Assembly: GCA_963749155.1 (NCBI GenBank)
Contig: CAVVLO010000002.1
Location: 1,120,001-1,184,000, forward strand
Source: an uncultured Armatimonadia bacterium
GTDB lineage: Bacteria; Armatimonadota; Zipacnadia; CAVVLO01
DNA length: 64,000 bases
Direction: 5' to 3'
Shown here: piece after piece, positions 35,911 through 63,059 of the stretch
How the letters are laid out: each line of letters starts with the position of its first letter
How positions within the stretch are numbered: the stretch's first letter is position 1
Made by a program: the position numbers and the translations under genes
Notes under the pieces: generated by a model
Databases searched by the model: none
What the model was told of the DNA's origin: nothing
What the model saw: the letters and a program-made list of their open reading frames with translations, nothing else

Positions 35911-35921
35911 AACTCTGAGTC

Positions 35922-39651: not shown

Positions 39652-39652
39652 T

Positions 39653-40555
39653 CTAGTCAGCCTTCTCCTGGTCTTTACCCAGTCCAAGCTTCTCAAGCAG
39701 GCCGGTGGTCTTGATGCGATTCATATTTAGTCCGAGATCGTCCTTGGGATCCATCCCGAAGGCCAGGCCCATAAGCTGGGGCAGATAGACGACGGGCAGG
39801 TCGTATTCTTTCTCTCTGACCTCGGCAATCTTGCGCTGGTTGTCGTCATACATAACACTGCAAAAGGGGCAGAAGAGCACCATCGCATCGGCGTGGCGCT
39901 CGGTGACCTCATCGAGCTTCTTGCCAGCCATTGAAAGGGCGAGGTTTTCATCTATAGGCAGCAAGGCGCCTCCGCAACAGTTGTACTTTGAAAGGTAGTT
40001 AAGAGACTTGCCGCCGAGGGCTTCGATAATCAGGTCGAGAGTATGAGCATCCTCTGGACTGTCAAACTTGTCATGTGCCTTGCTGGGCTTAAGGTAATGG
40101 CAGCCGTAGTGAGGCGCAAAAAGCAAGTCGCCAAGAGGATGGACGACCTTCTCACGGATGGCCTCAAGGCCAATATCCTCTATAAAGACGCGCGCGATAT
40201 GGCGTATCTTGACAGTGCCTTCATAGGTGCGGTCGATTTGAGCCAGATATTCGAGAGCCTGATCTCGACTGCGTTCATCGTGATGGAAACGATGATTCGC
40301 CTCAGCGAGGACTGCGGTACAGGCGCTGCAAAGAGACATTATCTCGAGGCCCTGCTCTTCGGCATAACTAAGCTGCAGGACGGCCATCGCATTGGCGGTA
40401 GGCACGTCGGTCGAGATGACAGGGAACCCGCAACAGGAGAAGTCAGGCACATTCACGAGTTCGATGCCAAAAGCTTCGCAGACTTTACGGGCGGAAAGCT
40501 CGTAGTTCTGACCTCTGACGGGGATAGTACAGCCGAGGAAGGCGGCGAACTTCAT
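39653..40555 (-). CDS. hdrB: Heterodisulfide reductase subunit B
   Basis: FLGC, SCCG, CSAC, HYGCH, CCGG, CPFC (two CCG domains). Confidence 0.95.
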   Translation of the reverse strand: MKFAAFLGCTIPVRGQNYELSARKVCEAFGIELVNVPDFSCCGFPVISTDVPTANAMAVLQLSYAEEQGLEIMSLCSACTAVLAEANHRFHHDERSRDQALEYLAQIDRTYEGTVKIRHIARVFIEDIGLEAIREKVVHPLGDLLFAPHYGCHYLKPSKAHDKFDSPEDAHTLDLIIEALGGKSLNYLSKYNCCGGALLPIDENLALSMAGKKLDEVTERHADAMVLFCPFCSVMYDDNQRKIAEVREKEYDLPVVYLPQLMGLAFGMDPKDDLGLNMNRIKTTGLLEKLGLGKDQEKAD

Positions 40556-41091
40556 TTTTTCTCACCCTCTTCTGCGGTAGCTTCGAACTCTTTTTTGAAC
40601 TTATAGTTGGCGAAGAGCTGGCGGACTGTTTCGGCGCGCTGTTCGATTTCGGGAAGGCCCATCCGCTTGCTGCGGCGTTTGTTGTCGAAGTCGGTGATCT
40701 CATAGATGCGGCCATACTGATACACCAGTTCGGCTTGCTTCTTGAAGCCGGCGGGCACATAGCCTCGTTCGACAGCCAGGTTCTTAAGCGCGGTAATGAC
40801 GTCGGTGAGGCGGACGTCCTGAGGACAGCGCTCCTCACAGGTGTAGCACATCGAGCACAGCCAGAGGGTCTCACTCTTCAGCAAGTCCTCATCAAGGCCC
40901 AGCAAGGCCTTATGGATGATCTGGCGCGGGTTGTAATCGGGATTTATTTCAGCCACCGGACAACCGGCGGTGCAGGTGCCACACTGGAAGCAAGCATTGA
41001 TATGCTCGCCTCCTGGTTGGCGCCTGACTTCATCAGCGAAATCAGGATGCAGAGTAGTGACTTCGCGGGTTTCGTCCTCGTTAGTACTCAT
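40552..41091 (-). CDS. hdrC: Heterodisulfide reductase subunit C
   Basis: CFQCGTCTAGCP, WLCSMCYTCEERCPQ. Confidence 0.95.
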   Translation of the reverse strand: MSTNEDETREVTTLHPDFADEVRRQPGGEHINACFQCGTCTAGCPVAEINPDYNPRQIIHKALLGLDEDLLKSETLWLCSMCYTCEERCPQDVRLTDVITALKNLAVERGYVPAGFKKQAELVYQYGRIYEITDFDNKRRSKRMGLPEIEQRAETVRQLFANYKFKKEFEATAEEGEKK

Positions 41092-41129
41092 ATCGGACCT
41101 CTCCCTGGTGGTAAAGAGCACAGCAGGAG

Positions 41130-42853: not shown

Positions 42854-43963
42854 ATGGCTGGACTGGTCGTTGCACTCGATGGCGGAGGCAGCCGGACGCG
42901 CGCGCTTGCAACTGACGGCTCAGGGCAGGTACTGGGAACCGGACTTGGCGGCGCAAGCGCCTTTGTGCGGGCAGGCGGAGCAGTGGTTTTCGAGTCTGTT
43001 GCGAAGGCACTGCAGCAGGCGGTTCCTTCCGAGCTAGGCAAGGAGCCGGCTTCGGTAGCTTTCTGCCTGGGTGGGGGCAACGGTGAGGAGGCCTGTGCTG
43101 CTGTAAAAGCGGTATTGCCGGCAGCCAAGGTGAGCCTGGTTGGAGAGGTCGACTGCGCGCTGGCACTTGGACAAGCGCGGTTGGTAGACCTTGTGGTGCT
43201 TGTTGGGACAGGCGTCATCGCAGGAGCCCCCTCGGGAGATTCGCTAGTTGCATGTGGAGGGATGGGCGCCTTTACAGGAGATGAAGGGGGCGGCTTCTGG
43301 GTAGGTTGGGAAGCCGTGCGAGCTGTAATAAGAGCACTGGATGGGCGCGCACCAGGCACTCTGCTCGAGCCTTTGCTGCTAGCTGAGTCACAACTCTCCA
43401 AGAGTGCTGGCTTACCACGAGACGAGGTTCTTGTCAGGCTGGCTGGTTCTCCAACCGAAAGAAGAGGACTGGCGTACCGACTCGTCTGGGGAGCGCGAGC
43501 CATGGGCAGGCAGCATATCGGGGCGTTGTCTCCTTATGTGAGCCAGGCTGCGCGTGAGGGTGACGAGGTTGCACAGGCTCTCCTGGTAAGGGCGGGAGGA
43601 GAGCTTGCTCGGTATGCACTTGCGCTTGGCCAGGAACTTGAAACTGCAGGGGCAAAGTCTGCCAGGGCAGGTTTTCTGGGAGGGCTGGTGCGATCGAGTC
43701 CTGAGGTGCTGGAAGGGATCAACCTGGAGTTTGCACAAGCAAGATCAGGCCTTGCGGCGGTTATACTTGAGGGCGAGTTAGTGTTTGGGGCGGCTTTGAA
43801 GGCACTGGAGCGTGTGCTTACCCAGGAACAGGCAGCAGTGCTTCTAGAGGACTGGAGCACCAAAGCGCACTGGGCTCTTGCACCCGAGCCCGAGTGGATT
43901 GCCCCGGAATATGGCAGCTTTGAGCCTGGAAGTCTGGCTTCAGAGTTCGGTTCGATCGCTTAG
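42854..43963 (+). CDS. BadF/BadG/BcrA/BcrD-type ATPase, N-acetylglucosamine kinase-like
   Basis: LDGGGSRT, VGTG, GDEGGGFWVG. Confidence 0.85.
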   Translation: MAGLVVALDGGGSRTRALATDGSGQVLGTGLGGASAFVRAGGAVVFESVAKALQQAVPSELGKEPASVAFCLGGGNGEEACAAVKAVLPAAKVSLVGEVDCALALGQARLVDLVVLVGTGVIAGAPSGDSLVACGGMGAFTGDEGGGFWVGWEAVRAVIRALDGRAPGTLLEPLLLAESQLSKSAGLPRDEVLVRLAGSPTERRGLAYRLVWGARAMGRQHIGALSPYVSQAAREGDEVAQALLVRAGGELARYALALGQELETAGAKSARAGFLGGLVRSSPEVLEGINLEFAQARSGLAAVILEGELVFGAALKALERVLTQEQAAVLLEDWSTKAHWALAPEPEWIAPEYGSFEPGSLASEFGSIA

Positions 43964-43973
43964 GAGGTACCCA

Positions 43974-44663
43974 ATGAACCTGGTCGACCAACTGAAGGGA
44001 AAGCTGGTGGTCTCCTGCCAGGCAGGCGATTACAGTCCTTTTCATGGCCCTCTCTTGATGGCAGCTTTTGCCTGGGCAGCCGAAAGAGGCGGGGCGGGGG
44101 GATTGCGCGTCGATAAACCTTGTGACATCGCAGCGTGCAGAAGGATCAGTTCCTTGCCCATAATTGGCATCTACAAAGTGATATATCCAGGAAGCGAGGT
44201 CTACATCACGCCAACTTTTCAAGAAGCCCAGGAGGTAAGCGAGGCGGGAGCGGACATATTGGCTATCGATGGGACTGGTCGTGAACGGCCGCTGGGAACG
44301 GAGCTGGGGGCACTTATCGAGCGCATCCAGGGAGAGTTGGGCAAGCCTGTGATGTGCGATTGTTCGACTGTAGAGGAAGGGCTGCGCTGCGCAGAATTGG
44401 GAGCGGATATTGTTGCTTCCACAATGGCTGGATACACTCCGTATTCTAAAAAAACGGAAGGGCCGGACCTGGAGATGGTAGCCAGGCTGGCAAGCGAGCA
44501 ACCAAAGCCTGTTATCGCTGAAGGGCGTTATTGGTCACCTGAAGAGGCGCGCCTGGCACTGGAGGCTGGGGCCCACGCGGTGGTTGTAGGAACGGCGATC
44601 ACGGTGCCGGAGTGGATAACTTCGCGGTTCGTTGCGGAGATGGCAGAAGCAAAGCGCAGTTGA
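43974..44663 (+). CDS. nanE: N-acetylmannosamine-6-phosphate 2-epimerase
   Basis: LVVSCQA, PIIGIYK, VYITPT, GYT, IAEGR, VVVGTAIT. Confidence 0.93.
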   Translation: MNLVDQLKGKLVVSCQAGDYSPFHGPLLMAAFAWAAERGGAGGLRVDKPCDIAACRRISSLPIIGIYKVIYPGSEVYITPTFQEAQEVSEAGADILAIDGTGRERPLGTELGALIERIQGELGKPVMCDCSTVEEGLRCAELGADIVASTMAGYTPYSKKTEGPDLEMVARLASEQPKPVIAEGRYWSPEEARLALEAGAHAVVVGTAITVPEWITSRFVAEMAEAKRS

Positions 44664-44697: not shown

Positions 44698-45150
44698 GTG
44701 AGCCGGCAAAGCAATACCTCAGTTCCGATACTTGGGTGGACAGTGCACCTGGCCAGGCAGCAACCTGCTCGCGCCTGGGGTGTCCTTTTGGCGATCCTCG
44801 GAGCATCAGTTTTAGCCTGGTGGGCCTTGGGAGCGCCTGCTTATGGGTTGCTTGCCGCCTTTTTACTGATTATGAGCCTGTCGGATTTCTATTTTCCAGT
44901 GAAATTCGAGTTGACGGAGCAGGGCGCAAGAGAGAGCTGCCTTGGGCCCAGGCGATATATCCAATGGAAGGAAGTGCGCCAGGTGTTCGTCGATGCGAAA
45001 GGCGTGAAGCTTAGTCCCCTTGCTGAGGAAAGCAGGCTCGAAGCTTATCGAGGCCTTTATCTGCGGTTCGCTGATAATGCCGAATTGGTAGAGGAGACAG
45101 TCAGAAGGCTTTGGGAGAAGGCGAAAACGGATGAGGAGCTTCGGCAGTGA
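44698..45150 (+). CDS. Hypothetical membrane protein (two N-terminal TM helices, beta-rich C-terminus)
   Basis: Hydrophobic pair followed by a soluble domain; overlaps the next gene. Confidence 0.65.
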   Translation: MSRQSNTSVPILGWTVHLARQQPARAWGVLLAILGASVLAWWALGAPAYGLLAAFLLIMSLSDFYFPVKFELTEQGARESCLGPRRYIQWKEVRQVFVDAKGVKLSPLAEESRLEAYRGLYLRFADNAELVEETVRRLWEKAKTDEELRQ

Positions 45151-45445
45151 GCCGGTAAGCCCGGAGCAGGAAACACTGCTGCTGGGTCAAATAGTTACCT
45201 TTGTAACCGCTCGCCGGCTGGAAGTACCTGCCGTCTTCCTGCTTGAGTTGACAAAACCGCTCAGTTTTATAACGAGCCAGGCTGTGGTGCTTGCCTCCCC
45301 AGTCCTTGGCGCTTTACTGGGACTAGCTACTGCAGAGGCGCTATATTGGGTTCTTGAAGACAGAGCGCGGGTAGAGAAACTTATACAGAGTATCGAGGAG
45401 GCCGCAACTCTGGCTCCGAGCGACCAGCAGAGCAAGCCGGACTAG
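45131..45445 (+). CDS. Small hypothetical protein
   Basis: LEVPAVFLLELTKPLSFITSQA; tightly packed between neighbours. Confidence 0.7.
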   Translation: MRSFGSEPVSPEQETLLLGQIVTFVTARRLEVPAVFLLELTKPLSFITSQAVVLASPVLGALLGLATAEALYWVLEDRARVEKLIQSIEEAATLAPSDQQSKPD

Positions 45446-45448
45446 CCG

Positions 45449-46297
45449 ATGGACAAGACTCTTCAGGATGCGATGGCCGAGCACGCCACATATGGCACCA
45501 GCGTGATGTTGTTGGTGCTTATAACCGTGTTGCTTGGTTTCGTGTTCACGGCGCGGCGCGGAAGAGAGTTATATGTAAGGCGCATCCCTGGGGTGGACGC
45601 CATACGCGAGGCCGTTGGGAGAGCCACCGAGATGGGCAAGCCCGTGTTTTTCTCGATTGGACTTGGTGGCATCGACATCGTTACCTTGCAGGCGCTTTCT
45701 ATCGCAGGTTATGTAGCCCGGCTTGCAGCCAAATATGGGACGAAAGTGATAGTGCCGGTAGTGTCGGCACCAGTATACCCAGTTGCAGAGCAAGTACTGA
45801 AAGAAGCGTATCTGGCCGAGGGCAAGCCTGAAGCTTTCAGTGAAGATCAGGTGCGTTTCCTGTCGGGAGAGCAGTTCGCCTACGCGGCAGCGTACGCAGG
45901 GATGATGCATCGAGAAAAGGCCGCGGCAAACCTGATGTTTGGTTTGTTCTATGCGGAGTCTTTGATTCTGGCGGAAAACGGTCAGAGCCTCGGGGCTATC
46001 CAGGTAGCAGGCACAGTCAGCACGACCCAGATACCTTTCTTCATTGCCACCTGCGATTACACTATCATTGGTGAGGAATACTACGCGACTTCGGCTTATC
46101 TTACGCGTGATCCGACCTTGCTAGGCTCGCTTGTAGGGCAAGACTATTCGAAGCTCCTGACTTTGTTGCTTGTGGTCGGAGGGGTAGCCTTGGCGACGCT
46201 TGCGGCCTTGTGGCCAGAGCTGGCAGGGCTTGATATGAAGCAGTTAAGCGAACTATACAAGGGGTTGTTCGAGTTCATCCCTCCCAATGGAAGCTAG
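45449..46297 (+). CDS. DUF6754-like membrane protein
   Basis: TM, then RRIPGVDAIREAVGRATEMGKP..AESLILAE..QIPFFIATCDYTIIGEEYYA; family name from recall. Confidence 0.75.
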   Translation: MDKTLQDAMAEHATYGTSVMLLVLITVLLGFVFTARRGRELYVRRIPGVDAIREAVGRATEMGKPVFFSIGLGGIDIVTLQALSIAGYVARLAAKYGTKVIVPVVSAPVYPVAEQVLKEAYLAEGKPEAFSEDQVRFLSGEQFAYAAAYAGMMHREKAAANLMFGLFYAESLILAENGQSLGAIQVAGTVSTTQIPFFIATCDYTIIGEEYYATSAYLTRDPTLLGSLVGQDYSKLLTLLLVVGGVALATLAALWPELAGLDMKQLSELYKGLFEFIPPNGS

Positions 46298-47114
46298 AGC
46301 CTGGTACCAACTAGAGCCGGGAACGGCCGCTTTCTATCTTGCGCTTGCAGGCGTGCTGCTGGGCGGCGTTGGCTTTCTGCTGCTACTGACTGCTTTGCCG
46401 AAGAAGGGCAAACAGTATCTGATTATCGCTTTCACTTTCCTCGCGGGGCTATTCTACTCGCTGGAATACTACCTGCCGGCAACCTCGCCCGAGGGCAACC
46501 TGCTGAGTCCCTACATCATTTCGGTCGGCGAGATAGCAATGGTAGTTGGGGCTTTCTCCTTCTTGCTCGGAGTCATCAACCTGACGATGCTGCATGGCAA
46601 CAGTATTGCCAAAAAGCGCAAAGGCTGGGGCGCGTCGGTAGTTTTCTTCGCAGGCTTCCTTACCACGGTCGTCGCCGGCCTGTTGCAGTTTTATAAGGGA
46701 GCACAGGATCCAGGCGCGGAGAAAACCATCTACGATGCCATCTGGTCGTATCTGTTTGACGGGATGCTGGTGCCACTGCAGGCAACCACTTTCTCTCTGC
46801 TCGCCTTCTACATCGTGTCAGCTTCCTACCGCGCTTTCAGGGTCAGGTCACGAGACGCGCTGCTGATGCTGGCTGCGGCGGTCGTGCTGATGCTGGGGCA
46901 GGTAAATGCGGGGCAATGGCTGACGCACTGGATTCCTGAAGATTCGACCTGGTCTTTTCTCAGAGTAGAAGTTATAGCCAATTGGCTGCTTTCTACAGTA
47001 AATATGGCGGCGCAGCGAGCAGTGCTGTTTGGATTGATGGTAGGCGAACTCGCAATGGCGCTACGGATATGGCTTAGCCTGGAGCGCGGCGCTTTCTTCG
47101 AAAGGAAGCTATAA
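46287..47114 (+). CDS. Polytopic hypothetical membrane protein
   Basis: Multiple TM segments; FSLLAFYIVSASYRAFRVR. Confidence 0.8.
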   Translation: MEARAWYQLEPGTAAFYLALAGVLLGGVGFLLLLTALPKKGKQYLIIAFTFLAGLFYSLEYYLPATSPEGNLLSPYIISVGEIAMVVGAFSFLLGVINLTMLHGNSIAKKRKGWGASVVFFAGFLTTVVAGLLQFYKGAQDPGAEKTIYDAIWSYLFDGMLVPLQATTFSLLAFYIVSASYRAFRVRSRDALLMLAAAVVLMLGQVNAGQWLTHWIPEDSTWSFLRVEVIANWLLSTVNMAAQRAVLFGLMVGELAMALRIWLSLERGAFFERKL

Positions 47115-47122
47115 GGGGCAGC

Positions 47123-47980
47123 ATGCTGGAGTGGCTTGCAAAATTCAGGCAGGTAGACCGGCGCCTAATATATCTGGTGCTGACGACGGTAGTGGTGGCG
47201 CCTTTCTTCCTGCCAATGGAGCTTCCAATCTACCCAAGTCCGCCGGCTCGGACCTTCTACGAGGCAGTCGAGGCAGTACCTGCGGACCGGCTTATATTGA
47301 TAGGGGCTGACTGGGATGCAGGCACCCAGGGCGAGATGAGCCCCCAATCAGAGGCCGTTATCGCACACCTGATGAAATCAAAGAAGCGTTTTGCGATCTG
47401 GTCTGCTTTTGTCCAGGGGCCGCTTCTGACACAGACTATCTGTGAGCGGATAGCACCAGAATTTGGGGCGAAGTATGGCGAGGATTGGGTCAATATCGGC
47501 TACCGGACCGCCACGTTCAACACGCTGATGGCGGCGGTGAAGGACTTCCAGGGCACCTTCAAAACGGATTATAAGAACACTCCCCTGGAAAAGTTACCTG
47601 TACTCGATGGCATCAAAGACGTCAAACAGATCGGTATGGTAATTGACTTCTCGGGCTCAATGATGATGCCGACCTATATCAACGTGTTTCAGCCTTACAA
47701 AGAGACCAAGCTCTGTGCAGGGGTAACGGCAGTAATGGGGCCGGACTTCTTCCCCTTCCTTGACGCGGGGCAAATAAAGGGCTTGCTGTTAGGACTTAAA
47801 GGAGCAGCCGAATACGAAGCACTGGTTGGCCGCCCCTCCCAGGCAACCTCGTCAATGAATTCGCAGTCGCTGGCTCACCTGTTGATAATACTGTTGATAG
47901 TGCTGGGCAACCTGGGACTGGTGGCTCAGCGAAAGCTCGAGGCTCGGCAGGCAGAGCAAGACCAGGGGGGGGGGAAGTAG
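47123..47980 (+). CDS. Membrane-anchored hypothetical protein (TM, soluble alpha/beta domain, TM)
   Basis: DRRLIY, KYGEDWVNIGY, GLKGAAEYE, SQSLAHLLII. Confidence 0.8.
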   Translation: MLEWLAKFRQVDRRLIYLVLTTVVVAPFFLPMELPIYPSPPARTFYEAVEAVPADRLILIGADWDAGTQGEMSPQSEAVIAHLMKSKKRFAIWSAFVQGPLLTQTICERIAPEFGAKYGEDWVNIGYRTATFNTLMAAVKDFQGTFKTDYKNTPLEKLPVLDGIKDVKQIGMVIDFSGSMMMPTYINVFQPYKETKLCAGVTAVMGPDFFPFLDAGQIKGLLLGLKGAAEYEALVGRPSQATSSMNSQSLAHLLIILLIVLGNLGLVAQRKLEARQAEQDQGGGK

Positions 47981-48603
47981 TGGAAAACCAACTGGCTATG
48001 ACTACTTTGGCCGCCCTGCTTACGCTGGCTATCTTCTCAATTCTGTATAAGGAAAACATCGTATACAGGTATGCAGAGCACCTGTTCGTGGGCATTGCAA
48101 CCGGATATGGCCTGGTCATCACCTGGAAAGACGTGCTGGTGCCAAAGTGGCTTGATCCGATGCTTTCCGGTGGGGCCTGGCCGTGGATGTTTGCAATGGT
48201 CGCGGGTCTTATGTGGTACACGATTTTCTTGCGCAAGTATGAATGGACCTCCAGGCTGTTGATTGGCACTTTTATGGGACTTGCCGCCGGGGAGAGTTTC
48301 CGCGCTTTCGGCACTTTCTATATGCCACAGATTACGAGTTCTTTCCGCCCCCTCTGGGCCGGGAGTGTTGGCGCTTCGCTCAACCAGCTCGTGGTCTTCA
48401 TCACACTGGTGACAGTACTCAGCTATTTCTTCTTTGCCTTCCGGTATGAGCGAAAGGTGCTGCAAGTATCAGCTCAAACGGGGCGATATCTGCTTATGCT
48501 GTCATTTGGGGCCATCTTCGGATCGACAGTGATGGCCAGACTTTCCTTGTTCATCGAACGAATCCACTTTCTGCTGAAAGACTGGCTGCATCTAATTAGG
48601 TAA
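47980..48603 (+). CDS. Polytopic hypothetical membrane protein
   Basis: FSILYKENIVYRYAEHLFVG, LSYFFF, GRYLLMLSFGAIFG. Confidence 0.8.
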   Translation: MENQLAMTTLAALLTLAIFSILYKENIVYRYAEHLFVGIATGYGLVITWKDVLVPKWLDPMLSGGAWPWMFAMVAGLMWYTIFLRKYEWTSRLLIGTFMGLAAGESFRAFGTFYMPQITSSFRPLWAGSVGASLNQLVVFITLVTVLSYFFFAFRYERKVLQVSAQTGRYLLMLSFGAIFGSTVMARLSLFIERIHFLLKDWLHLIR

Positions 48604-48669
48604 CCTTGGCTTAGCCAGGTCATCAGTCAGCATACCGGAGAAGGCTTTTTTTCCACGATTGGAGCTTAT

Positions 48670-49816
48670 ATGGAACTGTCAGTACTGCACGTGGAAACCG
48701 GCAAATACTGGACCGGTGGGACTGTCCAGGTGCTGAACCTGCATAACGCGCTTACTGAACGCGGAGTGCGGTCGTTGCTGATAGCGCCCAGGGGAAGCGA
48801 GATAGCAGCTCGAGCCCAGCAAGCTGGACTGCCAGTCGAGGAACTGCCTTTTCGCGGAGAGGGAGATTTACTGGCTATATGGCGCCTGCGTTGTATCATC
48901 AGAAAATTTCGACCAACAATCCTCGAACTTCATCAGCCGGCGGGGTGCACCACTTCTGGGAGAGCTTGCCGCCCTCACAATCTCCAGGCGCAGTCGCCCC
49001 AAGGTTATCGTGCATCGCAGAGTTGACAACCGACCAAGTAGTGATCATCTTCAGCGCTGGCAACTCACTCGAGGTTGTGACTTCGTAATCGCCATATCAC
49101 GACGCATCTACAATGTGCTAATCGAATATGGGGTGTCCAGAGAGAAACTCGAGCTTGTCTATAGCTCAGTTGATATAGACGGTTTTGCGGAGCCCTATTC
49201 TCAGGAAGAGTTCGCGAGTCTGCTGGATTTGCCCGCCGAGGCCCAGGCTGTGGGCATTGTGGCTCAACTTATCGAGCGTAAAGGTCATTCTGACTTGTTG
49301 AAAGCTTTTGCCAGGGTGGCAGCAGAGTATCCCAACCTGTATGTCGTGGTATGTGGTCGCGGGCCACTTGAAGAAAGCCTGCGCACTGAAGCCCAGACGC
49401 TGGATATAGCGGACCGAGTGCGATTTCCAGGTTTCAGGCAGGACTTGCGCCGGTTGCTTCCCCGGTTTGCAATGTTGGCACATCCTGCTTATATGGAAGG
49501 GCTTGGGGTGGCTGTCCTCGAAGCCATGGCAGCAGGAGTCCCTGTAATCGCCTGTAATGCCGGAGGCCTGCCCGAGATGGTGCTAGACAGGCAAACTGGT
49601 TTACTGGTGGAGCCGGGAGATGTCGCAGGACTTGAAACCGCGATACGTCGTTTGCTGGAAAGCTCGGCGCAAGCAGCCCGTTATGCGGAAGCAGCACGCA
49701 CAAAAGTAATAGAAGATTTCTCGCTGGAAACAATGGTGGACAGGACGCTGGCAATCTACGAGCGGCTTCTACTACCAAAGTCTGGCAAGGAGAGCTTTGA
49801 TAGCGATGGGGCTTGA
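48670..49816 (+). CDS. Glycosyltransferase family 4, frameshifted near 48934
   Basis: LHVETGKYWTGG..ELH, then SRRG..HRRVD..RKGH..EGLGVAVLEAMA after a +1 shift. Confidence 0.85.
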
Positions 49817-51614
49817 GGATGCAGGTTTGATATTAGCCACTGATTGCGGCTCTACCACTACAAAAGCCATACTGGTAGAGAAACGCTCTGAAGGGTATCG
49901 GTTAGCGGGACGAGGCGAGGCGCCAACAACAGTAGAGGCTCCTTTCGACGATGTTACTATTGGAGTACTCAATGCCACATCGGAATTGGAGGAGACTACC
50001 AGGCGCAAGCTGCTAAATCCGGCGGGCGATGGGCTTCTTACAAAGAGTGCTTCTGCTGAAGCCGAACTGGACTTATATGTATCCACCTCGAGCGCCGGAG
50101 GCGGACTCCAGATGATGGTTGCCGGCGTGGTAGGCTCAATGACTGGCGAGAGCGCCCAACGCGCAGCCCTCGGCGCAGGCGCGATAGTGATGGACGTCAT
50201 CTCGGTTGATGATGGCCGCAGTCAATATGAACGAGTCGAACTGCTTCGCAGCCTTCGGCCTGACATGGTATTGCTTGCTGGCGGGACAGATGGAGGCACC
50301 ATCGTTCATGTTGCAGAGCTTGCCGAGACCCTGGTTGCCGCGAAACCAACACCCCGGTTTGGACTTAATTTCCGCTTGCCTCTGGTTTACGCGGGCAATG
50401 TGGAAGCTCGAGATGAAGTACAACGGTTACTTGCCGAGATTGCAGACGTCCGCCTGGTCGCGAATCTGAGGCCAGCCCTGGATTCAGAAAACCTGGGCCC
50501 GGCGCGCGAAGCCATCCACGAGTTGTTTCTGGATCATGTGATGCAGCAAGCACCCGGTTATCCTCGACTAACAAGCTGGGTGGCGGCGGATATTATGCCA
50601 ACTCCCTCGGCAGTTGGTTACCTGGTGCAGTTGGTAGCAGAAGCAGAACAGCTCAATGTGTTGGCAGTTGATATCGGAGGCGCCACGACTGATGTGTTTT
50701 CTGTTTTCAACGGCAACTACACCCGCACAGTAAGCGCCAATCTGGGTATGAGTTACAGCATCCAGAACGTCGTGAAAGAGGCAGGTATCGATCGCATCTT
50801 ACGCTGGCTGCCTTTTGAGACCCCTGCAGAGGCTGTACGAACTCAACTGAAGAACAAGATGATCCGCCCTACTACTATCCCTCAACGCAACGATGATTTG
50901 CTGATTGAGCAAGCAGTGGCAAGAGAGGCGTTGAGACTGGCGCTAGACCATCATAACCAGCTTGCTGTGAGTTTGAAAGGTATACAACAGATACGTACGA
51001 TTGGCGAAGCCCTGACACAGGAAGGCAGTGGGCGTCGACTGGTCGATATGAACAACGTGGACTTGCTTATAGGGAGCGGTGGAGTATTGTCTCACGCGCC
51101 CAGGCGCTGGCAAGCCGCGTTGATGTTGATTGATGCTTTTGAGCCGGCAGGATTCACCAGACTTGCGGTCGACAGCATCTTTATGATGCCCCAACTGGGA
51201 GTTCTGGCCTCGGTACATCGAGAGGCTGCTCTTGAAGTCTTCGAGCGAGACTGCCTTCTGCCGCTTGGCGCAGTAATCGCTCCTTTTGGGGTTCCTGCGC
51301 GAGCGGGGGTGTCGTTGGGTAAAGCAATAGTTACTACTCCGACTGGAGCTGTCGAGCTGGAGCTTCTAGCTGGAGAACTCCAGCTTGTACCACCCTGGGG
51401 AGATGGACTGGCCAAGCTTGTTGTAGAGCCAGGCCGGAAGTGGGATGTTGGCGCCGGGCCCGGGCATCCTCTGGAAGTTACGGTGGAGGGAGGCCAGGTT
51501 GGATTGATCTTCGATTGCCGAGGTCGTCCTCTGGTGATACCTGAATCTCGCAAGGAATCATGTGTATATAACGAAAGGAGCCTGGTCGAACTTGCCAGGG
51601 GAGGAGATCACTGA
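49806..51614 (+). CDS. GlmL/MutL-type (glutamate mutase L-like) ASKHA ATPase
   Basis: TDCGSTTTKA, SSAGGGL, AGGTDGG, YAGN, MPTP, DIGGATTDVFS, GSGG. Confidence 0.82.
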   Translation: MGLEDAGLILATDCGSTTTKAILVEKRSEGYRLAGRGEAPTTVEAPFDDVTIGVLNATSELEETTRRKLLNPAGDGLLTKSASAEAELDLYVSTSSAGGGLQMMVAGVVGSMTGESAQRAALGAGAIVMDVISVDDGRSQYERVELLRSLRPDMVLLAGGTDGGTIVHVAELAETLVAAKPTPRFGLNFRLPLVYAGNVEARDEVQRLLAEIADVRLVANLRPALDSENLGPAREAIHELFLDHVMQQAPGYPRLTSWVAADIMPTPSAVGYLVQLVAEAEQLNVLAVDIGGATTDVFSVFNGNYTRTVSANLGMSYSIQNVVKEAGIDRILRWLPFETPAEAVRTQLKNKMIRPTTIPQRNDDLLIEQAVAREALRLALDHHNQLAVSLKGIQQIRTIGEALTQEGSGRRLVDMNNVDLLIGSGGVLSHAPRRWQAALMLIDAFEPAGFTRLAVDSIFMMPQLGVLASVHREAALEVFERDCLLPLGAVIAPFGVPARAGVSLGKAIVTTPTGAVELELLAGELQLVPPWGDGLAKLVVEPGRKWDVGAGPGHPLEVTVEGGQVGLIFDCRGRPLVIPESRKESCVYNERSLVELARGGDH

Positions 51615-52726
51615 TGGCGACCGCTTACACGGCAGGGCTTAGAGTAAGCAGCTCAGCCACAGTGCGCAAGGAACGCAAGCTCCCTTTGCTGGGCGAAGTG
51701 TTGGTTAAGGCAGGTGACCGGGTCGCACCTGAAACCGTGCTGGCAAAAGCCGACAGGCCTGGACTGCTGTCCTCGCTGCACCTGGCAGACAAGCTTGGTG
51801 TTGATGCCGATGCACTCCAGGCGGCGTTGCTTGTCAAAGAGGGAGACTCAGTCGAAGAAGGCCAGCTCCTGGGTGAGCACAAGTCCTTCTTTGGGATGTT
51901 TACCTCAAAGGTCATCGCTCCACATGCAGGCACAGTGGAGTTTATCTCTGCCGTTACTGGCAACCTGGGTTTGAGGCGGGCGCCCACTCCCCTCGAGTTA
52001 AAGGCCTTTATAGCGGGCGAAGTGCTGGAAGTCCTTCCCGAACAGGGAGCCGTCCTTGAAGCAAAGGGAGCTTTTGTACAGGGAATATTCGGCGTTGGGG
52101 GCGAAGCAGTCGGCGAACTTGCGCTTGCAGTGGAATCTCCAGATGAGGTGCTTGTGGCGTTGCCAGAGCAAATCGCAGGCAAGGTGCTAATCGCAGGAGC
52201 AGGGGTCAGCGATGACGTGCTGGCAGCGTTACTTGTGAATCCTCCGGCGGCACTGGTTGTGGGCAGTCTGGTTGATAGTCAGCTTGCCAGCTTGCTTGGC
52301 GTAGAATTGGGTGTTGCAATAACTGGCAAAGAGCGTCTTGGTATGACGGTAGTTCTGACTGAAGGCTTTGGCCAATTGGCAATGGCAAGTCGGACCTTCA
52401 ATGTTTTTGCAGGTCTGGTTGGCAAGCAAGCGTCCGTCAGTGGAGCGACTCAGATACGCGCGGGAGTCTTAAGACCAGAGGTAATAGTGCCCCTTGAGGC
52501 CTCGGAAGGCGCTGAAGCCTCTAAAACTGGAACCGAGCTAGTGGCGGGGGCGAGAATACGACTTATCCGCGAGCCTTATTTTGGTTTGCTGGGACACGTC
52601 CTGGCACTCCCCGAGCAGCCTGTAGAGCTTGAGACTGGCGCCATCGTCAGAGTGCTGGAAGCCGAACTGGATTCTGGTCCAACGGTGCAGGTTCCACGCG
52701 CCAATGTGGAGTTGTTTGAAGATTGA
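51614..52726 (+). CDS. Uncharacterised protein with barrel-sandwich-hybrid-like repeats and KOW-like C-terminus
   Basis: GEVLVKAGDRV, LLVKEGDSVEEGQ, QGIFGVGGE, TEGFG, GATQIRAG..RPE, IREPYFG..VPRANVE. Confidence 0.75.
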   Translation: MATAYTAGLRVSSSATVRKERKLPLLGEVLVKAGDRVAPETVLAKADRPGLLSSLHLADKLGVDADALQAALLVKEGDSVEEGQLLGEHKSFFGMFTSKVIAPHAGTVEFISAVTGNLGLRRAPTPLELKAFIAGEVLEVLPEQGAVLEAKGAFVQGIFGVGGEAVGELALAVESPDEVLVALPEQIAGKVLIAGAGVSDDVLAALLVNPPAALVVGSLVDSQLASLLGVELGVAITGKERLGMTVVLTEGFGQLAMASRTFNVFAGLVGKQASVSGATQIRAGVLRPEVIVPLEASEGAEASKTGTELVAGARIRLIREPYFGLLGHVLALPEQPVELETGAIVRVLEAELDSGPTVQVPRANVELFED

Positions 52727-53691: not shown

Positions 53692-53718
53692 CAGAGCAAA
53701 ACTTGTATATAAATGAGA

Positions 53719-53747
53719 AGCCCCGGCTGGGAGTTCCAGCCGGGGCT
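53719..53747. terminator. Hairpin terminator between convergent pfkB and csp
   Basis: AGCCCCGGCTGG-GAGTT-CCAGCCGGGGCT. Confidence 0.75.
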
Positions 53748-53768
53748 CTGGGTTGGCTAGAGTTCAGG

Positions 53769-53978
53769 TTACCACTGAGAGATAACCTGTACGTTCACCG
53801 CCTGCGGCCCCTTGTCGCTCTCTTCGATGTCGAAGGAAACGGCCTGGCCCTCTTCGAGAGACCTCCAACCGTCGCCGCCAACAGCCGAGAAGTGGACGAA
53901 GACGTCTTTGCCCTCTTCGCGTGCGATGAAACCGTACCCTTTCTGGTCATTAAACCATTTTACCGTACCAACAGCCAT
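53769..53978 (-). CDS. Cold-shock protein (CspA family)
   Basis: [39 protein letters not shown]. Confidence 0.96.
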
Positions 53979-54047
53979 GTCGAACCTCCTGATGTGGCGG
54001 ACCTTGCTTGCATCCGCCCTTCCTGGAGTCGGGTGACTCCAAGCCGT

Positions 54048-54075
54048 AGTGTAACACATATACTGAAAAGGTCAA
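54048..54075 (-). promoter_or_regulatory. Candidate promoter of the csp gene
   Basis: TTGACC, 16 bp, TACACT with extended TG on the minus strand. Confidence 0.45.
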
Positions 54076-54177
54076 GGCCAAAAGGCGAACAAAGTCCTTT
54101 TCAAAGCGATTCTAACCCAAAATACCTGCCAGTAAGCCGAAGGAAGGGCTTCTGGAGGCACGAAAGGGGGGCCGGAG

Positions 54178-56142
54178 GTGGGCTTGTTGCTGATTCTTAC
54201 GGTAGTTGGACTTATGCTAGTTTTATTACTGCCGGGCCTTGTCCATGCAGAGCCTGTCCTAAGGCTCGAAGCCTCTTGCCAGGCGGCCGAGTTGGCTTTC
54301 TTTGGTCTGGACACTGAAGGCACAGGAAGAGAAACGCAGAACCTCTTGCGCACAGATTCGGCAGTGACGCTGCACTCTGATGGAGCTCCAGTCGAGCTGG
54401 TGACTGCTACTAGCCGCCAGAATTCGGCTTCTTATCGCGTAAGGACACAAAGCGGAGCCGAGTTGCTTTGGCGGCTTGCGTGGTCCAAGGGCCAGTTGGA
54501 GTGCAGTTTCGAGACACGCGGCCAGGCCCCGGTGCCGATTAGCCTTACTTTCCCCTTTGATGCGCGCGTTACAGCCACGACCTTGCTTGCCTCCGACTGG
54601 ACCAAGGCAGGTTCGACAATTACACCAGCTCTTCTGAGTGTGCCCGATTTTGGACAACTGTTGATCACAGCCAAAGACAATCCCCTGCACTTGCGGTTGT
54701 CAGGAAATTACAGCCGGCGAGAAGTCGACGTTCTCATTGAGACCACGTGTGTCCCTGGCAAGCCAGTAAAGATCACTTTGTCACCATACTGCCTCACAGT
54801 ACCTGAGCGAGTGGATTCGGCGATGTGGAAGCTGGCTCGCAGAGGCTGGTTTGGCGCGCTTGAGGCGCTTGCGGACAACGGAGCGGATGCCTGGAACCTT
54901 CCAACTGGGCAAGCGCTGGTGAGAGAGCTTCATCCACCAGGGATGCTGGGTAATGAGGTCATCAGTGGGAATGCTACGTGCTCGACATGGTTCTATGCCG
55001 ACCAGGTGCTCTGGATCCCAGAGGTCGCGCCGGGCGTCAGTGTTGCTCAGATGCTGCGCAGGACACTGGATATCACTTTAGATACCAGGCTGGAACCTTC
55101 AGGCCGGCTGATTTGCTACTGGATGCCAACTCATATTGGCGCTTATGCGGATTTTCTGGACTCCCAGCCCTCGGTGTTGATCTCGGCCTGGGATTATGTC
55201 GAGGCAACAGGTGATGTGGCGTGGCTCAGGCAACGGATCGATGAGTTGGAGCTTGTCGCTTCCTATCTTGCAGCCCGCGATGTAAACGGCGACGGGCTGG
55301 TAGAAGCCGTTCAAAGTGGCAACGATGGGACGCTGGTTGATCCGGCGCGCGGGGCGTCCTGGTGGGATGCCGTCGATACAGGCTGGCAGGATGGTTATAC
55401 CAATGCTCTTACCTTCCGAGCCTGGTGCTGCCTGGCCGAGCTGGAGGAGAGACTGGGTAGACAAGCCCAGGCTGAGTCTTTCCGCAGGTTGGCACGCCTT
55501 TTGAAGCAAGCCTATGCGCCTGCCTTGTGGGCTGAGGAAAATGGTTGGCTTGGCTGGTGGCGCAGTCAGGACGGAGTTTTACACGACCCAGCGGCGATTC
55601 TCGTCAACAGCCTCGCAATCGAATATGGCTTGCTGGACAAAGCCACAGGTAAAGCCGTGCTTGCTCGTTTCCATAGAGAGCTCGAGAGAGCTGGTTACAC
55701 AAGATTGGATTTGGGAGTGCCTGCAAGCCTTAGGCCTTTTAGACCTGAAGAGTATCTGCTGGGCATAACTCCTGGTATCTGCGGAGTGCCAGGACAGGCA
55801 GATGGTTCAGACACACTGGGCCAGTACCAGAATGGCGGAGTGCATGCAGGTCATACATTACACTGGCTTGCAGCTCACTACGTCGCAGGCGAAACCGAAT
55901 ATGCCGATTCGGTGCTGCAGCAGATGCTGGAAAGGCAGGCGAAAGGGCTCTTCCAGAATGGTGTATGGGGCGAATCGGGCAAGGGAATCGAGTGGACAAA
56001 CTGGCAGGGGCAGCCCACGGGGGCGGACGGCTATCTGGCAGACAATTTTCGCTTTCTGCAGGCGCTCTTTCTACGTGATCCAGAGCTTCGGAAAGGCTAT
56101 TACCGGCCCATTGAAAGGCTCAGAGAAGGGCAACCTGGCTGA
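54178..56142 (+). CDS. Secreted (alpha/alpha)6-barrel glycoside hydrolase-like protein
   Basis: Signal peptide; DYVEATGD.AWL..DVNGDGLVE..SWWDAV..YTNAL..YQNGG; exact GH family not assignable. Confidence 0.65.
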   Translation: MGLLLILTVVGLMLVLLLPGLVHAEPVLRLEASCQAAELAFFGLDTEGTGRETQNLLRTDSAVTLHSDGAPVELVTATSRQNSASYRVRTQSGAELLWRLAWSKGQLECSFETRGQAPVPISLTFPFDARVTATTLLASDWTKAGSTITPALLSVPDFGQLLITAKDNPLHLRLSGNYSRREVDVLIETTCVPGKPVKITLSPYCLTVPERVDSAMWKLARRGWFGALEALADNGADAWNLPTGQALVRELHPPGMLGNEVISGNATCSTWFYADQVLWIPEVAPGVSVAQMLRRTLDITLDTRLEPSGRLICYWMPTHIGAYADFLDSQPSVLISAWDYVEATGDVAWLRQRIDELELVASYLAARDVNGDGLVEAVQSGNDGTLVDPARGASWWDAVDTGWQDGYTNALTFRAWCCLAELEERLGRQAQAESFRRLARLLKQAYAPALWAEENGWLGWWRSQDGVLHDPAAILVNSLAIEYGLLDKATGKAVLARFHRELERAGYTRLDLGVPASLRPFRPEEYLLGITPGICGVPGQADGSDTLGQYQNGGVHAGHTLHWLAAHYVAGETEYADSVLQQMLERQAKGLFQNGVWGESGKGIEWTNWQGQPTGADGYLADNFRFLQALFLRDPELRKGYYRPIERLREGQPG

Positions 56143-56287: not shown

Positions 56288-56914
56288 TCAGCCTGACTCT
56301 CTGATTTCTTCGGCTTCTGTCGCCAGAGCTTTACGCAGGTCGAGTATGTATTTTACAAAGGCCTCGAGGTCTTCGGGAAACTTTCCATCAGGCCAGGTAC
56401 GTGAGACGCCACCGACGCCTCTCCAATAGCTGGCAACAGCCATCCGCTCCTTCTGTTCGTGGTCTTTGAAGAAGGCAAGACTCCGGTACAAATAGCGAAC
56501 ACAGCCCTGTATACCCTGCAGGGGGTCCAGTGGATTGTCTACGCCATAATCGGCAGCGGTGCCTGGAAGCATTTGGGCGATGCCCAAAGCTCCGGCAGTT
56601 GATACAGCATCTGGCCGGAAACTGGATTCACGACTGAGGACAGCTGCGACCAGGTGGCAGTCAACAGGTTCTTTGGCTGCGAGGCGTGACTGCAGGTCGA
56701 TAGCCTGGGCGATAGAGGTCGCGTATTCCTCTGGCATCTTGGGATTGCGTTTCCGGATGTGGTTGTAGATAGCTACACCGTCGGGTGAGAGGACGGAGAG
56801 TTCGCAAGGCTCGAGTGAGCCATAGATACCGACTTCGGCAGGGGGCGCTGGAGCGGCAGCAGGCTGGTTGGCCATCCCCATCAGGAAGACGAGTCCAAGC
56901 AGAAGGGCCTCCAT
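56288..56914 (-). CDS. Lytic transglycosylase (SLT domain), exported
   Basis: SRESSFRPDAVSTAGALGIAQMLPGTA..ASY; N-terminal signal. Confidence 0.88.
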   Translation of the reverse strand: MEALLLGLVFLMGMANQPAAAPAPPAEVGIYGSLEPCELSVLSPDGVAIYNHIRKRNPKMPEEYATSIAQAIDLQSRLAAKEPVDCHLVAAVLSRESSFRPDAVSTAGALGIAQMLPGTAADYGVDNPLDPLQGIQGCVRYLYRSLAFFKDHEQKERMAVASYWRGVGGVSRTWPDGKFPEDLEAFVKYILDLRKALATEAEEIRESG

Positions 56915-56971
56915 TGTGTCTTCTCCTAAAGCTAGTGTGTAGTGGCTGCGACAAGTGCTGCAAGACAGGGT

Positions 56972-58426: not shown

Positions 58427-58485
58427 CTCAGCCACCAGGAGCGCTCCGGAGCAGAAGGATGCGTTCTTGTATTGATTATAACTTC

Positions 58486-59112
58486 TCAGCGCGCTCCTGA
58501 GCTTCTGGCACTTCCACATATTGGACAATCTGCATCTTCTGGAGGATACCAGGCGCCACAGCTTGCACATTCGTGCCAGCCCTTCAATCGGCGGTATTGC
58601 TGGAGCTTCAACTCCTTCAGTCGAATAGTCCGTATCGAATCTCTTAAAGCTGGATCCAGTTCTGCAAGGGCTTCTTCAATGGCTGCCAGCAGGCCTGGTT
58701 CAAGTGTAATCGCCTCGAGATCTGGCGCCTCAAGGACTGTACTCTCCACCGATTCTTCCTGCCGGCGAATTCGTGGCATTGCGGCTGTAAAACGGAGCGA
58801 GGAGGCGACCTCTGCGCCTAGCCTGCGATTGAGCGCGCGCCTGAGTTTGGTGGCTTGTGCAGAAAGCTCCTGTGCCCACACGCTGCTTGTGACCGTCACC
58901 TTCACAACCCCTTCATTGACCGCAACATAACGCGTTACAGCAGCAATCTCAGGGCCAGCGACTTCCGCCCAGAGAGAAGGGATCCATTGCTCGAGCGCTG
59001 TCCGGCGTTGAGGCACCTTGTGGAGAAAAGGCCCAAGCGCGTTGCTTATGCTGTCCAGGTTGCTTCGCCTACGCCTGGCCACTGGCTTCCACTTCTCCTT
59101 CGTGAACATCAA
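58486..59112 (-). CDS. DUF721/DciA family protein with C-terminal Zn ribbon
   Basis: WAEVAGPEIA..VTSSVWAQEL; CASC..CPIC; position directly after recF. Confidence 0.82.
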   Translation of the reverse strand: MMFTKEKWKPVARRRRSNLDSISNALGPFLHKVPQRRTALEQWIPSLWAEVAGPEIAAVTRYVAVNEGVVKVTVTSSVWAQELSAQATKLRRALNRRLGAEVASSLRFTAAMPRIRRQEESVESTVLEAPDLEAITLEPGLLAAIEEALAELDPALRDSIRTIRLKELKLQQYRRLKGWHECASCGAWYPPEDADCPICGSARSSGAR

Positions 59113-60166: not shown

Positions 60167-60184
60167 ATTCTGTACATCTGCAGC

Positions 60185-61294: not shown

Positions 61295-61316
61295 AGTGTT
61301 CCTCCGCCTGGTCTTC

Positions 61317-62925: not shown

Positions 62926-63029
62926 AAGGACTCCACTCCTGGCCATCGTCTCTACCCGATATATCGGGCATGCTGGCCGGGAAACACCCCTTAGCGCTGA
63001 AGAACGAAGTTCCTGCTTCGGGGAGGATT

Positions 63030-63059
63030 ACTATAACAGGGGGTGAACTTGAGGCGCAA
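63030..63059 (-). promoter_or_regulatory. Candidate dnaA promoter
   Basis: TTGCGC, 18 bp, TATAGT with extended TG on the minus strand. Confidence 0.4.

Follow-up and report, generated by a model that had tools for sequence, protein, structure and literature searches.

What task does an ATPase of the GlmL type perform when it is encoded beside a row of membrane proteins and no mutase is at hand? This question is raised by positions 44698-52726 (+ strand) of a 64,000-nt stretch of contig CAVVLO010000002.1 from an uncultured Armatimonadia bacterium, hereafter called the window. An earlier note, made from the letters alone, had described here six tightly coupled hypothetical, mostly membrane genes (44698-48603), a GT4 glycosyltransferase and a GlmL-type ATPase coupled to a partner protein, and had proposed an ATP-energised membrane complex. 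In the present study, we found nine reading units in this region, all on the + strand and with ends that overlap or almost abut (Table 1). Eight of them, GT4 being excluded, very probably make up one functional unit. The favoured explanation for the whole is that these eight genes encode an ATP-using membrane machine, to which we assign a probability of roughly 45%; that its membrane complex would be energised by the ATPase together with its partner, here called BSH370, is proposed with moderate confidence. The set matches no machine that has been studied.

The ATPase matched PF13941 with 418 bits over residues 12-486 (profile positions 1-450), above the gathering score, and the match is followed by about 120 further beta-rich C-terminal residues. 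The protein is 605 aa long from a TTG start and 602 aa from the ATG at 49806; the collection's own copy has 602 aa. A hydropathy scan found no hydrophobic segment in it. Its stop codon and the ATG of the partner gene overlap as TGATG, with GGAGG shortly 5' of the overlap, in agreement with the coupling reported in the earlier note. In an alignment of 13 ATPases from several phyla, the mean column identity was 66%, the cross-phylum identity to the window's protein was 49-61%, and five stretches were invariant (TDCGSTTTKA, STSSAGGGLQM, GGTDGG, DIGGATTD and GSGG..SHAP). The ASKHA phosphate-1, phosphate-2 and adenosine motifs were all invariant; judged by these motifs, nucleotide binding is thus very likely intact. 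The ATPase had at least 8000 relatives at E<=1e-20 and no sequence-search match among solved structures.

Public records label close relatives of this ATPase 'glutamate mutase L' or 'TIGR01319 family'. GlmL/MutL is an accessory protein of the coenzyme-B12-dependent glutamate mutase, and Or-4 belongs to ornithine degradation. With these proteins (PF13941, NF040745, NF040744, TIGR01319) the window's ATPase shares the Pfam family and the ASKHA motifs, but it is about 140 aa longer, with its beta-rich C-terminal part past the PF13941 match; unlike GlmL, it has a fixed partner of 370 aa and co-occurs with DUF6754 genes, in a genome without a mutase. It scored 233.8 bits against the GlmL equivalog NF040745 (curated cut-off 475), 215.6 bits against Or-4 NF040744 (cut-off 600) and 169.3 bits against TIGR01319 (cut-off 204.05). 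The glutamate mutase E subunit, Met_asp_mut_E (PF06368), was matched nowhere in the genome (completeness 100% according to its table), and the window was likewise found to hold no mutase. Four B12-binding domain matches were present in the genome, on contigs C1 and C5 and not on the contig of the system. Because the genome lacks the glutamate mutase E subunit and the scores lie under all three cut-offs, the ATPase, as far as its sequence tells, is neither a GlmL nor a mutase helper here, and the name 'glutamate mutase L' is not supported for it. These results agreed with the earlier description of the ATPase as an orphan that is not linked to a mutase.

The relation of the ATPase to the membrane genes was examined in 69 DUF6754 loci collected by a scan, against which the window proteins were searched by tblastn. 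The loci are labelled Armatimonadota, Planctomycetota, Latescibacterota, Binatia, Cloacimonadota, Zixibacteria, Eisenbacteria, Ignavibacteria, Bacillota, Verrucomicrobiota, Methanomethylicia and Bathyarchaeota; several stop at contig ends, so that the misses are upper bounds. The order of the core genes, DUF6754-h275-h285-h207, was constant across loci (for the frequency of each gene, see Table 1). The loci in which the ATPase adjoined the membrane genes came from several phyla, and in one of them (L102) the order was h150-h104-ATPase-partner-DUF6754-h275-h285-h207. In loci of the same class, the end of the partner gene met the start of the DUF6754 gene in 27 of 29 cases, the other two loci being incomplete, and the ATPase gene preceded this partner-DUF6754 arrangement in three genomes (G194, G054 and G092). 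The small gene h104 lies immediately 5' of DUF6754 in the window and immediately 5' of the ATPase in L059, L064, L074 and L102.

Co-occurrence was then counted over whole genomes. Among 301 genomes of the window's phylum, DUF6754 was found in 257, the ATPase in 255 (above the cut-off) and the partner in 257 (by a profile built on its alignment, A1). By our reading of the printed tables, all three markers were present in 244 genomes, none in 38, and one or two in 19, and these 19 partial genomes are 55-94% complete. All three markers were absent from family f12 (27 genomes) and also from G006 and G118 (two genera of f15), G010 (f19), G139 (f21) and G167 (f2), whose relatives have them. In the complete genome G147, the genes are far apart (ATPase, 0.95 Mb; DUF6754, 1.31 Mb; partner, 2.07 Mb), and G121 is similar; therefore, linkage cannot explain the shared presence and absence. 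In 20 ATPase neighbourhoods, the partner was found in 8 (directly adjacent in 6) and the membrane module in 1. One cultured Armatimonadota genome is called 'seemingly disorganized' in a published abstract (PMC4959169), a wording that fits the scatter of the system genes. A second phylum, that of L059 (labelled Planctomycetia), was represented by 151 genomes at least 90% complete: DUF6754 was found in 40 and a strong ATPase match in 38, with both in 38, DUF6754 alone in 2, a weak partial ATPase-family match alone in 1, and neither in 110. The two archaeal genomes tested, those behind L079 and L098, each carry an ATPase gene apart from the membrane module. The earlier note had held that its proposal would fall if the ATPase went with mutase subunits, or if the genes did not co-occur elsewhere; the outcome in both phyla favoured the note.

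Natural fusions support physical association within two of the pairs. The ATPase and its partner were found as one chain in 14 proteins of 957-1006 aa; in the aligned fusions, the ATPase covers about residues 1-584 and the partner begins at about residue 607 or 631. One ORF (open reading frame; L092:1852-3780, 642 aa) fuses h285 with h207. ORF starts in the high-GC loci were taken as the longest frame and may be too long. A 1167-aa frame in the Verrucomicrobiota locus L067, with weak GH32/43/130 matches (E ~1e-4), was possibly such an over-long call and was not used.

The partner BSH370 is predicted by its AlphaFold model (predicted local distance difference test, pLDDT, 87) to combine a barrel-sandwich hybrid, a swivelling beta/beta/alpha domain and a KOW/SH3-like barrel (Table 1). 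The earlier note had read it as a protein of hybrid-like repeats; a hybrid domain is indeed there, and instead of repeats alone the model holds three different domains. In the fold search with VIA-align, the Z values were barely above the tool's stated background of 7-8, and the matches are taken to indicate fold class, not kinship. Besides Enzyme I, the swivelling domain matched a rifampin phosphotransferase (5hv1_A, Z 8.8), the small subunit of aconitase X (7cnr_B, Z 8.6) and the C-terminal domain of a pyruvate kinase (2e28_A, Z 8.0). By sequence, the partner matched RnfC_N at 6.2e-8 with 33.1 bits (cut-off 25.6), and NQRA_N and Biotin_lipoyl weakly, the Biotin_lipoyl matches spanning just profile positions 17-35 of 73. 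A lenient Pfam scan of the family gave RnfC_N in 27 of 33 members and an SH3-like match in 15; PEP-utilizers gave no match among the 33 even at E<=1. Beyond the weak hybrid-domain matches, no Pfam or NCBIfam model fitted the partner, and a sequence search of solved structures returned only noise at E>0.04. In a profile search of 1.84 billion cluster representatives, it had 1081 relatives at E<=1e-30 and 3273 at E<=0.001.

The alignment of these 33 partner sequences (54% mean column identity) limits the chemistry that BSH370 could carry out. Several stretches were invariant (QGIFGxGGE, GVAITGxE, TEGFG, GATQIRAG.IRPE and PRANVE), and none of the invariant positions was a Lys, His or Cys; nor was any Lys or His nearly invariant. 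A role as a biotinyl/lipoyl carrier was therefore rejected, since it would call for a conserved Lys, as were roles as a phosphohistidine carrier for lack of a conserved His and as an iron-sulfur (Fe-S) protein for lack of an invariant Cys. The swivelling fold is that of the mobile domains of enzymes that use phosphoenolpyruvate (PEP), such as Enzyme I of the phosphotransferase system (PTS), PPDK and rifampin phosphotransferase, and of aconitase X (Z 8.6-8.9, rmsd, the root-mean-square deviation, 2.4-2.7, 105-106 residues aligned, 11-22% identity). Unlike the PEP-utilising domains, that of the partner has no conserved catalytic His and has other flanking domains, and its model has no helix at the place of the His of Enzyme I. 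A complex prediction of the partner with residues 38-225 of DUF6754 gave 0.00 in two runs, with the controls not folded, and speaks neither for nor against an interaction. Two divergent partners that are fused to ATPases (P0135 and P0136) each gave two BLAST matches, which overlap at about partner residues 20-112, and several partner-like proteins of about 450 aa matched the partner profile in two stretches. These sequence matches suggest that the N-terminal hybrid domain is doubled in such forms.

Within the membrane module, the DUF6754 subunit matched PF20539 at 1.1e-95 with 320 bits (profile positions 9-250 of 257), above the gathering score. Its AlphaFold model (pLDDT 92) shows a helix at 15-36, a Rossmann-like alpha/beta domain at 47-220, a long hydrophobic helix at 222-254 and a short terminal helix, and R58, E61, E176, Q194, C202 and D203 were invariant in 46 sequences. 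In other lineages, a signal peptide and an fn3-type domain (4.6e-7) precede the first helix, indicating that the N-terminus lies outside and the Rossmann-like domain inside, and a K/R-rich stretch after helix 1 agrees with this placement. An N-out helix, a cytoplasmic Rossmann-like domain and a C-terminal membrane helix are thus predicted. The fold search yielded many tied Rossmann-like matches at Z 9.3-10.5 (SDR, PGK, GT-B, sirtuin, RCK/KTN and transhydrogenase dIII), and the best Foldseek match was 4-phosphopantoate-beta-alanine ligase (E 6e-4, TM 0.31); none of these generic matches was specific. The ESM Atlas returned the DUF6754 family alone, and neither DUF6754 nor h285 matched a solved structure by sequence. 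The ectodomain is 18 aa long in the window, and Cloacimonadota proteins have up to about 740 additional N-terminal residues. Four Cloacimonadota proteins of 936-995 aa (L060:2371-5346, L060:7697-10684, L073:3644-6565 and L073:9068-11878) have about 680-740 residues before the DUF6754 part, a large uncharacterised ectodomain with one weak fn3 match. In several genomes of the window's phylum, two DUF6754 genes stand in direct tandem (G034:C34, G060:C19, G020:C63 and L038:976-2620), and the ATPase and the partner give one match each in these genomes; the tandem genes may encode a heteromeric pair of Rossmann subunits.

The other three core proteins are less easily classified. In h285, hydrophobic segments at 15-33 and 250-268 enclose about 215 residues, and both the N-terminus and the tail are K/R-rich, so that the enclosed domain should face outward; an N-in helix, an extracytoplasmic domain of about 215 aa and a C-terminal helix are predicted from sequence. 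No Pfam family was matched by its 54 members in the lenient scan, and the named clusters of the ESM Atlas gave no usable match. In h275, hydropathy indicated at least six hydrophobic segments, and the motif ATMFSLLAFFIASAAYRAFRxR was conserved; its 52 members gave no consistent Pfam family at E<=1, only scattered weak permease-like matches such as TMD0_ABC (10 of 52, best E 0.006). The polytopic h207 has invariant N26, E33, Y149 and F150 (alignment A5), and its 47 members likewise gave no consistent family at E<=1; the window's copy had one sub-threshold holin match (E 0.0086, 16.5 bits against a cut-off of 28.8). In four h207 relatives of 410-453 aa (P0137-P0140), an insert of some 250 residues separates the N-terminal from the C-terminal membrane part, both of which are conserved; the longer relatives comprised five proteins with such an insert and no h285 fusion. 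A duplicated two-gene unit in the membrane core was not supported, since profile-profile comparison gave a probability of 35% for h285 against DUF6754 (first helix and about 100 residues, not significant) and 0.3% for h275 against h207. Of the two small proteins, h150 has an N-terminal hairpin of hydrophobic segments at 28-68, and weak bPH_6 matches occurred in 7 of 20 family members (best E 5e-4) and not in the window's copy; these weak sequence signs hint at a small accessory protein with a hydrophobic hairpin and a PH-like C-terminal half. The protein h104 has one hydrophobic segment and the conserved motif RRLExPA..FLE..PL (alignment A6).

These features can be arranged into a working model, in which the folds and the membrane topology are predicted. 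The membrane module would consist of four proteins: DUF6754 with its Rossmann-like domain inside, h285 with its domain outside, and the polytopic h275 and h207, with h150 and h104 as small membrane-associated helpers. The ASKHA ATPase and the three-domain BSH370 would form an energising pair in the cytoplasm; its docking site on the inner face would most likely be the DUF6754 domain or h104. By binding and hydrolysing ATP, the pair would move the swivelling domain of the partner and thereby drive a conformational cycle of the membrane module. We infer the assembly of the proteins, the hydrolysis of ATP and transport as the work done. The most likely task would be solute transport, probably the uptake of oligomers, for example peptides or oligosaccharides, with h285 and the fn3-type DUF6754 ectodomains of other lineages on the outer side; a transporter is a plausible but tentative reading, drawn by analogy.

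The analogy comes from the following observations. Opp/Dpp-type ATP-binding cassette (ABC) importer genes, comprising an SBP_bac_5 binding protein, two permeases and two ATPases with an oligo_HPY tail, were present on the same strand in 11 of the 69 loci (two Planctomycetota, two Latescibacterota and seven closely related Binatia), and partial sets in L102 and L096. In the Latescibacterota loci L069 and L075 (~1.1-15.1 kb), importer and system genes are interleaved in one same-strand operon: ATPase, binding protein, OppB, OppC, partner, DUF6754, h275, h285, h207, OppD and OppF. Whole membrane modules were also found in tandem, two each in L059, L064, L060 and L073 and three in L089. Furthermore, the mean column identity fell from 66% in the ATPase and 54% in the partner to 42% in DUF6754 and 26-33% in the membrane subunits; the cytoplasmic parts were far better conserved than the membrane and outer parts. 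The length of the DUF6754 ectodomain, between 18 aa in the window and about 740 aa in other lineages, is a further hint of this kind. Collectively, these observations resemble importers, in which a conserved energiser serves variable substrate-facing parts, and they are not proof of transport. A conserved cytoplasmic ATPase module, several modules per locus and the Opp operon link are thus points of likeness to ABC and energy-coupling factor (ECF) importers. In contrast to ABC systems, the eight proteins gave no match to the ABC ATPase domain (ABC_tran) at E<=0.01, the ATPase fold here is ASKHA, and a consistent match to an ABC or ECF family is missing among the membrane subunits. The genome of L089 (G304, labelled Bacillota, 1.8 Mb), whose three tandem modules form one locus, has six PF13941 matches, five of them strong, and appears as an expanded version of the system.

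Several points weigh against an ATP-driven membrane machine devoted to transport. The eight proteins match no known transporter family, the lenient Pfam scans of h207, h275 and h285 (47, 52 and 54 members) yielding no consistent family, and we know of no transporter that is energised by an ASKHA ATPase, which leaves the analogy without precedent. Opp genes were not found in the window by tblastn, and they accompany the system in a minority of loci, of which the seven Binatia are close kin. The conservation of the ATPase and the partner, together with the many invariant charged residues of the partner, fits an enzyme of strict chemistry equally well. Near-universal presence in the phylum, mostly as a single match, equally fits a housekeeping role in the envelope or in maintenance. 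Since genomes within a phylum are related by descent, the co-occurrence counts exceed the true number of independent events; even so, the pattern is seen again in separate families and in both phyla.

Several rival explanations were considered. The pair could serve a chaperone- or reactivase-like maintenance function, in which ATP drives the release or exchange of a ligand or subunit bound by DUF6754, the Rossmann-like part of a membrane enzyme or of a cofactor-bearing complex. The large subunit of diol dehydratase reactivase unites an ASKHA ATPase and a swivelling domain, and its target is a Rossmann-like subunit; B12-enzyme reactivases generally (DdrA/DdrB, PduG/H and EutA) share with the window's pair an ASKHA ATPase plus a swivelling domain, which in the present system belongs to a partner that is either separate or fused. 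The ATPase lies in PF13941, the family of the proposed glutamate mutase helper, the partner carries a swivelling domain, and the candidate client DUF6754 is Rossmann-like with invariant polar residues, C202 and D203 among them. The differences are that the window's swivelling domain is on a separate chain that also bears a hybrid motif and a KOW-like barrel, that DUF6754 is membrane-anchored, and that a link to a B12 enzyme is missing. DUF6754, whose fold matches are generic, showed no recognisable cofactor motif; no reactivase chain appeared among the 50 listed partner fold matches, which does not exclude one; and outward domains, two polytopic subunits and the Opp link are left unexplained. 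We regard this explanation as unlikely. A PTS-like relay, in which a phosphoryl or other group passes from the ATPase to the swivelling domain of the partner, then to DUF6754 and finally to a substrate crossing the membrane, draws on the same domains and is still less probable. The top swivelling matches of the partner, Enzyme I and rifampin phosphotransferase, carry phosphoryl groups, EIIA-Glc of the PTS has the same fold class as the N-terminal hybrid motif of the partner, and a membrane-tethered Rossmann-like domain with an invariant Cys-Asp recalls EIIB domains. However, aconitase X, which transfers no group, matches equally well, the 33 partners offer no conserved His and the model no helix to hold it, and scans of h207 and h275 found no EIIC family. 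Rated low as well is an envelope scaffold or assembly platform, in which an ASKHA protein on bitopic proteins organises a surface structure instead of moving a solute, in the manner of PilM with PilN/PilO or of FtsA with the division machinery. Two bitopic proteins with domains on opposite sides of the membrane, fn3-type ectodomains in relatives and near-universal, mostly single matches in the phylum would suit such a platform, but the eight proteins gave no PilM, PilN, PilO, FtsA or MreB Pfam match at E<=0.01, the ATPase belongs to the GlmL/hydantoinase branch and not to the actin branch, and no pilin, secretin or surface-structure gene was conserved near the 69 loci.

Two further readings are largely excluded. 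The ordinary annotation would make the ATPase a B12-mutase reactivase for a mutase encoded elsewhere, with the membrane genes as unrelated neighbours. The database names of its close relatives and the four B12-binding domain matches of the genome speak for it; the absent E subunit, the scores below the three cut-offs and a phyletic pattern that tracks DUF6754 in two phyla leave it largely refuted. No mutase was among the conserved neighbours of the 69 DUF6754 loci, and the 20 ATPase neighbourhoods were searched for the window's genes only. An Rnf/Nqr-like redox-driven ion pump, suggested by the hybrid domain of the partner, which resembles the N-terminal domains of RnfC and NqrA both in sequence and in structure, is likewise very improbable. 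The partner may, like NqrA, be a cofactor-free peripheral subunit, but the likeness is confined to the hybrid domain: neither the partner's other parts nor any membrane subunit is related to Rnf/Nqr, an invariant Cys and matches to Fe-S or NADH-binding domains are missing from the partner, h207 (47 members) and h275 (52 members) gave no Rnf-Nqr family match at E<=1, and the conserved set contains no flavin- or Fe-S-binding subunit. An ATP-using membrane machine is thus the explanation that we retain. A stronger version, which we consider possible yet doubtful, is a new class of primary active machine, in which an ASKHA ATPase, acting through an adaptor with a swivelling domain, would power a four-subunit module unlike known transporters; such a machine would be ancient, common to bacteria and archaea, and near-universal in at least one phylum. 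In its boldest form, an ATP-fed relay would have the swivelling domain carry a group from the ATPase to the membrane-tethered Rossmann domain with its invariant Cys-Asp and would work with Opp-type importers on the uptake of peptides or oligosaccharides.

With regard to the locus itself, the description of 44698-48603 as six coupled, mostly membrane genes was upheld by the ORFs, by the junctions (overlaps of 20, 11 and 1 nt and gaps of 3 and 8 nt) and by the hydropathy scan, which found hydrophobic segments in all six proteins. Pfam gave no noteworthy match for h150, h104, h275, h285 or h207. The top relatives of DUF6754 and the ATPase were labelled Armatimonadota. A 6046-bp contig of the metagenome run X1 covers 45923-51969, indicating the same gene order in a near-identical strain; sediment and wastewater are habitats in which near-identical DNA occurs. 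The GT4 gene, which the earlier note had placed in the gene set, is real and is not a member of the conserved set; having a homologue in one DUF6754 locus of the 69, it is a local insert. Its two ORFs match the N- and C-parts of GT4 models, and an extra base lies at 48933/48934 (within 48925-48945) relative to contigs of X1 and X2, two other metagenome runs from different studies. Without this base, GT4 is a single ORF of 381 aa ending at 49816; the frameshift is either an assembly error or strain-specific.

Table 1. Genes of the examined region, predicted domains of BSH370 with their VIA-align fold-class matches, and occurrence in 69 DUF6754 loci (tblastn)
Feature	Position	Strand	Basis	Occurrence
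h150	44698-45150	+	ORF, 150 aa	26/69, upstream of h104
h104	45131-45445	+	ORF, 104 aa	39/69
DUF6754 subunit	45449-46297	+	ORF, 282 aa; PF20539	69/69
h275	46287-47114	+	ORF, 275 aa	63/69, directly after DUF6754
h285	47123-47980	+	ORF, 285 aa	58/69
h207	47980-48603	+	ORF, 207 aa	57/69, last core gene
GT4 glycosyltransferase, frameshifted	48670-49816	+	two ORFs, 48670-49026 and 49010-49816; Pfam halves	1/69
GlmL/MutL-family ASKHA ATPase	49797-51614	+	PF13941 MutL, 5.8e-125	12/69
BSH370 (ATPase partner)	51614-52726	+	ORF, 370 aa; weak RnfC_N, NQRA_N, Biotin_lipoyl matches	10/69
BSH370, barrel-sandwich hybrid	residues 47-125		RnfC 8ahx_C, Z 7.4; NqrA 4u9o, Z 7.2 over 51-123	
BSH370, swivelling beta/beta/alpha domain	residues 152-294		PTS Enzyme I 2wqd_A, Z 8.9, rmsd 2.7, 105 aligned, 20% identity	
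BSH370, KOW/SH3-like barrel	residues 308-370		KOW, Z 8.8, rmsd 1.3, 52 aligned	
Flanking sugar genes		+		0 or 1 of 69

According to Pfam, the system is flanked by sugar genes on its own strand: a response-regulator diguanylate cyclase, a BadF-type kinase and NanE stand upstream, and a PfkB kinase and a six-hairpin glycosidase downstream. The longest ORFs of the BadF-type kinase and NanE (42854-44663) overlap by 86 nt, and the NanE match begins at residue 61, so that the true start is probably further downstream. A 204-aa ORF (53703-54317) overlaps the 654-aa glycosidase ORF by 140 nt (region 53703-56142). On the minus strand at 31492-41121 lies a heterodisulfide-reductase/Mvh-like cluster with a 1008-aa HdrA-like flavoprotein bearing several 4Fe-4S domains, an MvhD/FlpD protein, two Pyr_redox/Fer4 proteins, a CCG-domain (HdrB-like) protein and a ferredoxin-like protein, which suggests an anaerobic, electron-bifurcating metabolism. 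At 56288-63910, the minus strand carries genes for an SLT transglycosylase, RtcB, DciA, RecF, DnaN and DnaA, and the plus strand carries that for GidB. Together with a cumulative GC skew maximum near 57 kb, these genes place the system about 10 kb from the likely replication origin.

In the literature covered, which leaves out subscription-only papers, no paper on a system of DUF6754, TIGR01319 or PF13941/PF20539 was found in full text, and nothing relevant was found on membrane links of GlmL/ASKHA proteins or on glutamate mutase L in Armatimonadetes. New in the present study are the predicted three-domain fold of the partner with its swivelling domain and the exclusion of His and Lys chemistry in it; the topology predicted for h285 and DUF6754; the joint profile of three markers whose genes are unlinked; the fusions of ATPase and partner; and the test in a second phylum. 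The system is widespread, with its 1081 partner representatives, at least 8000 ATPase relatives and three markers in 244 of 301 genomes of the phylum, and the 49-61% identity of the ATPase across phyla is on a par with core housekeeping proteins. So far, it has been named only by a DUF and by the misleading label 'glutamate mutase L'. Since its genes are dispersed but co-inherited in the phylum, they offer a clean genetic test bed. If a transporter or energy-coupling complex is indeed driven by an actin-fold ATPase here, it would add a new kind to the few primary energisers of membranes, thousands of annotations would be corrected, and a core trait of several poorly known phyla and some archaea would be explained.

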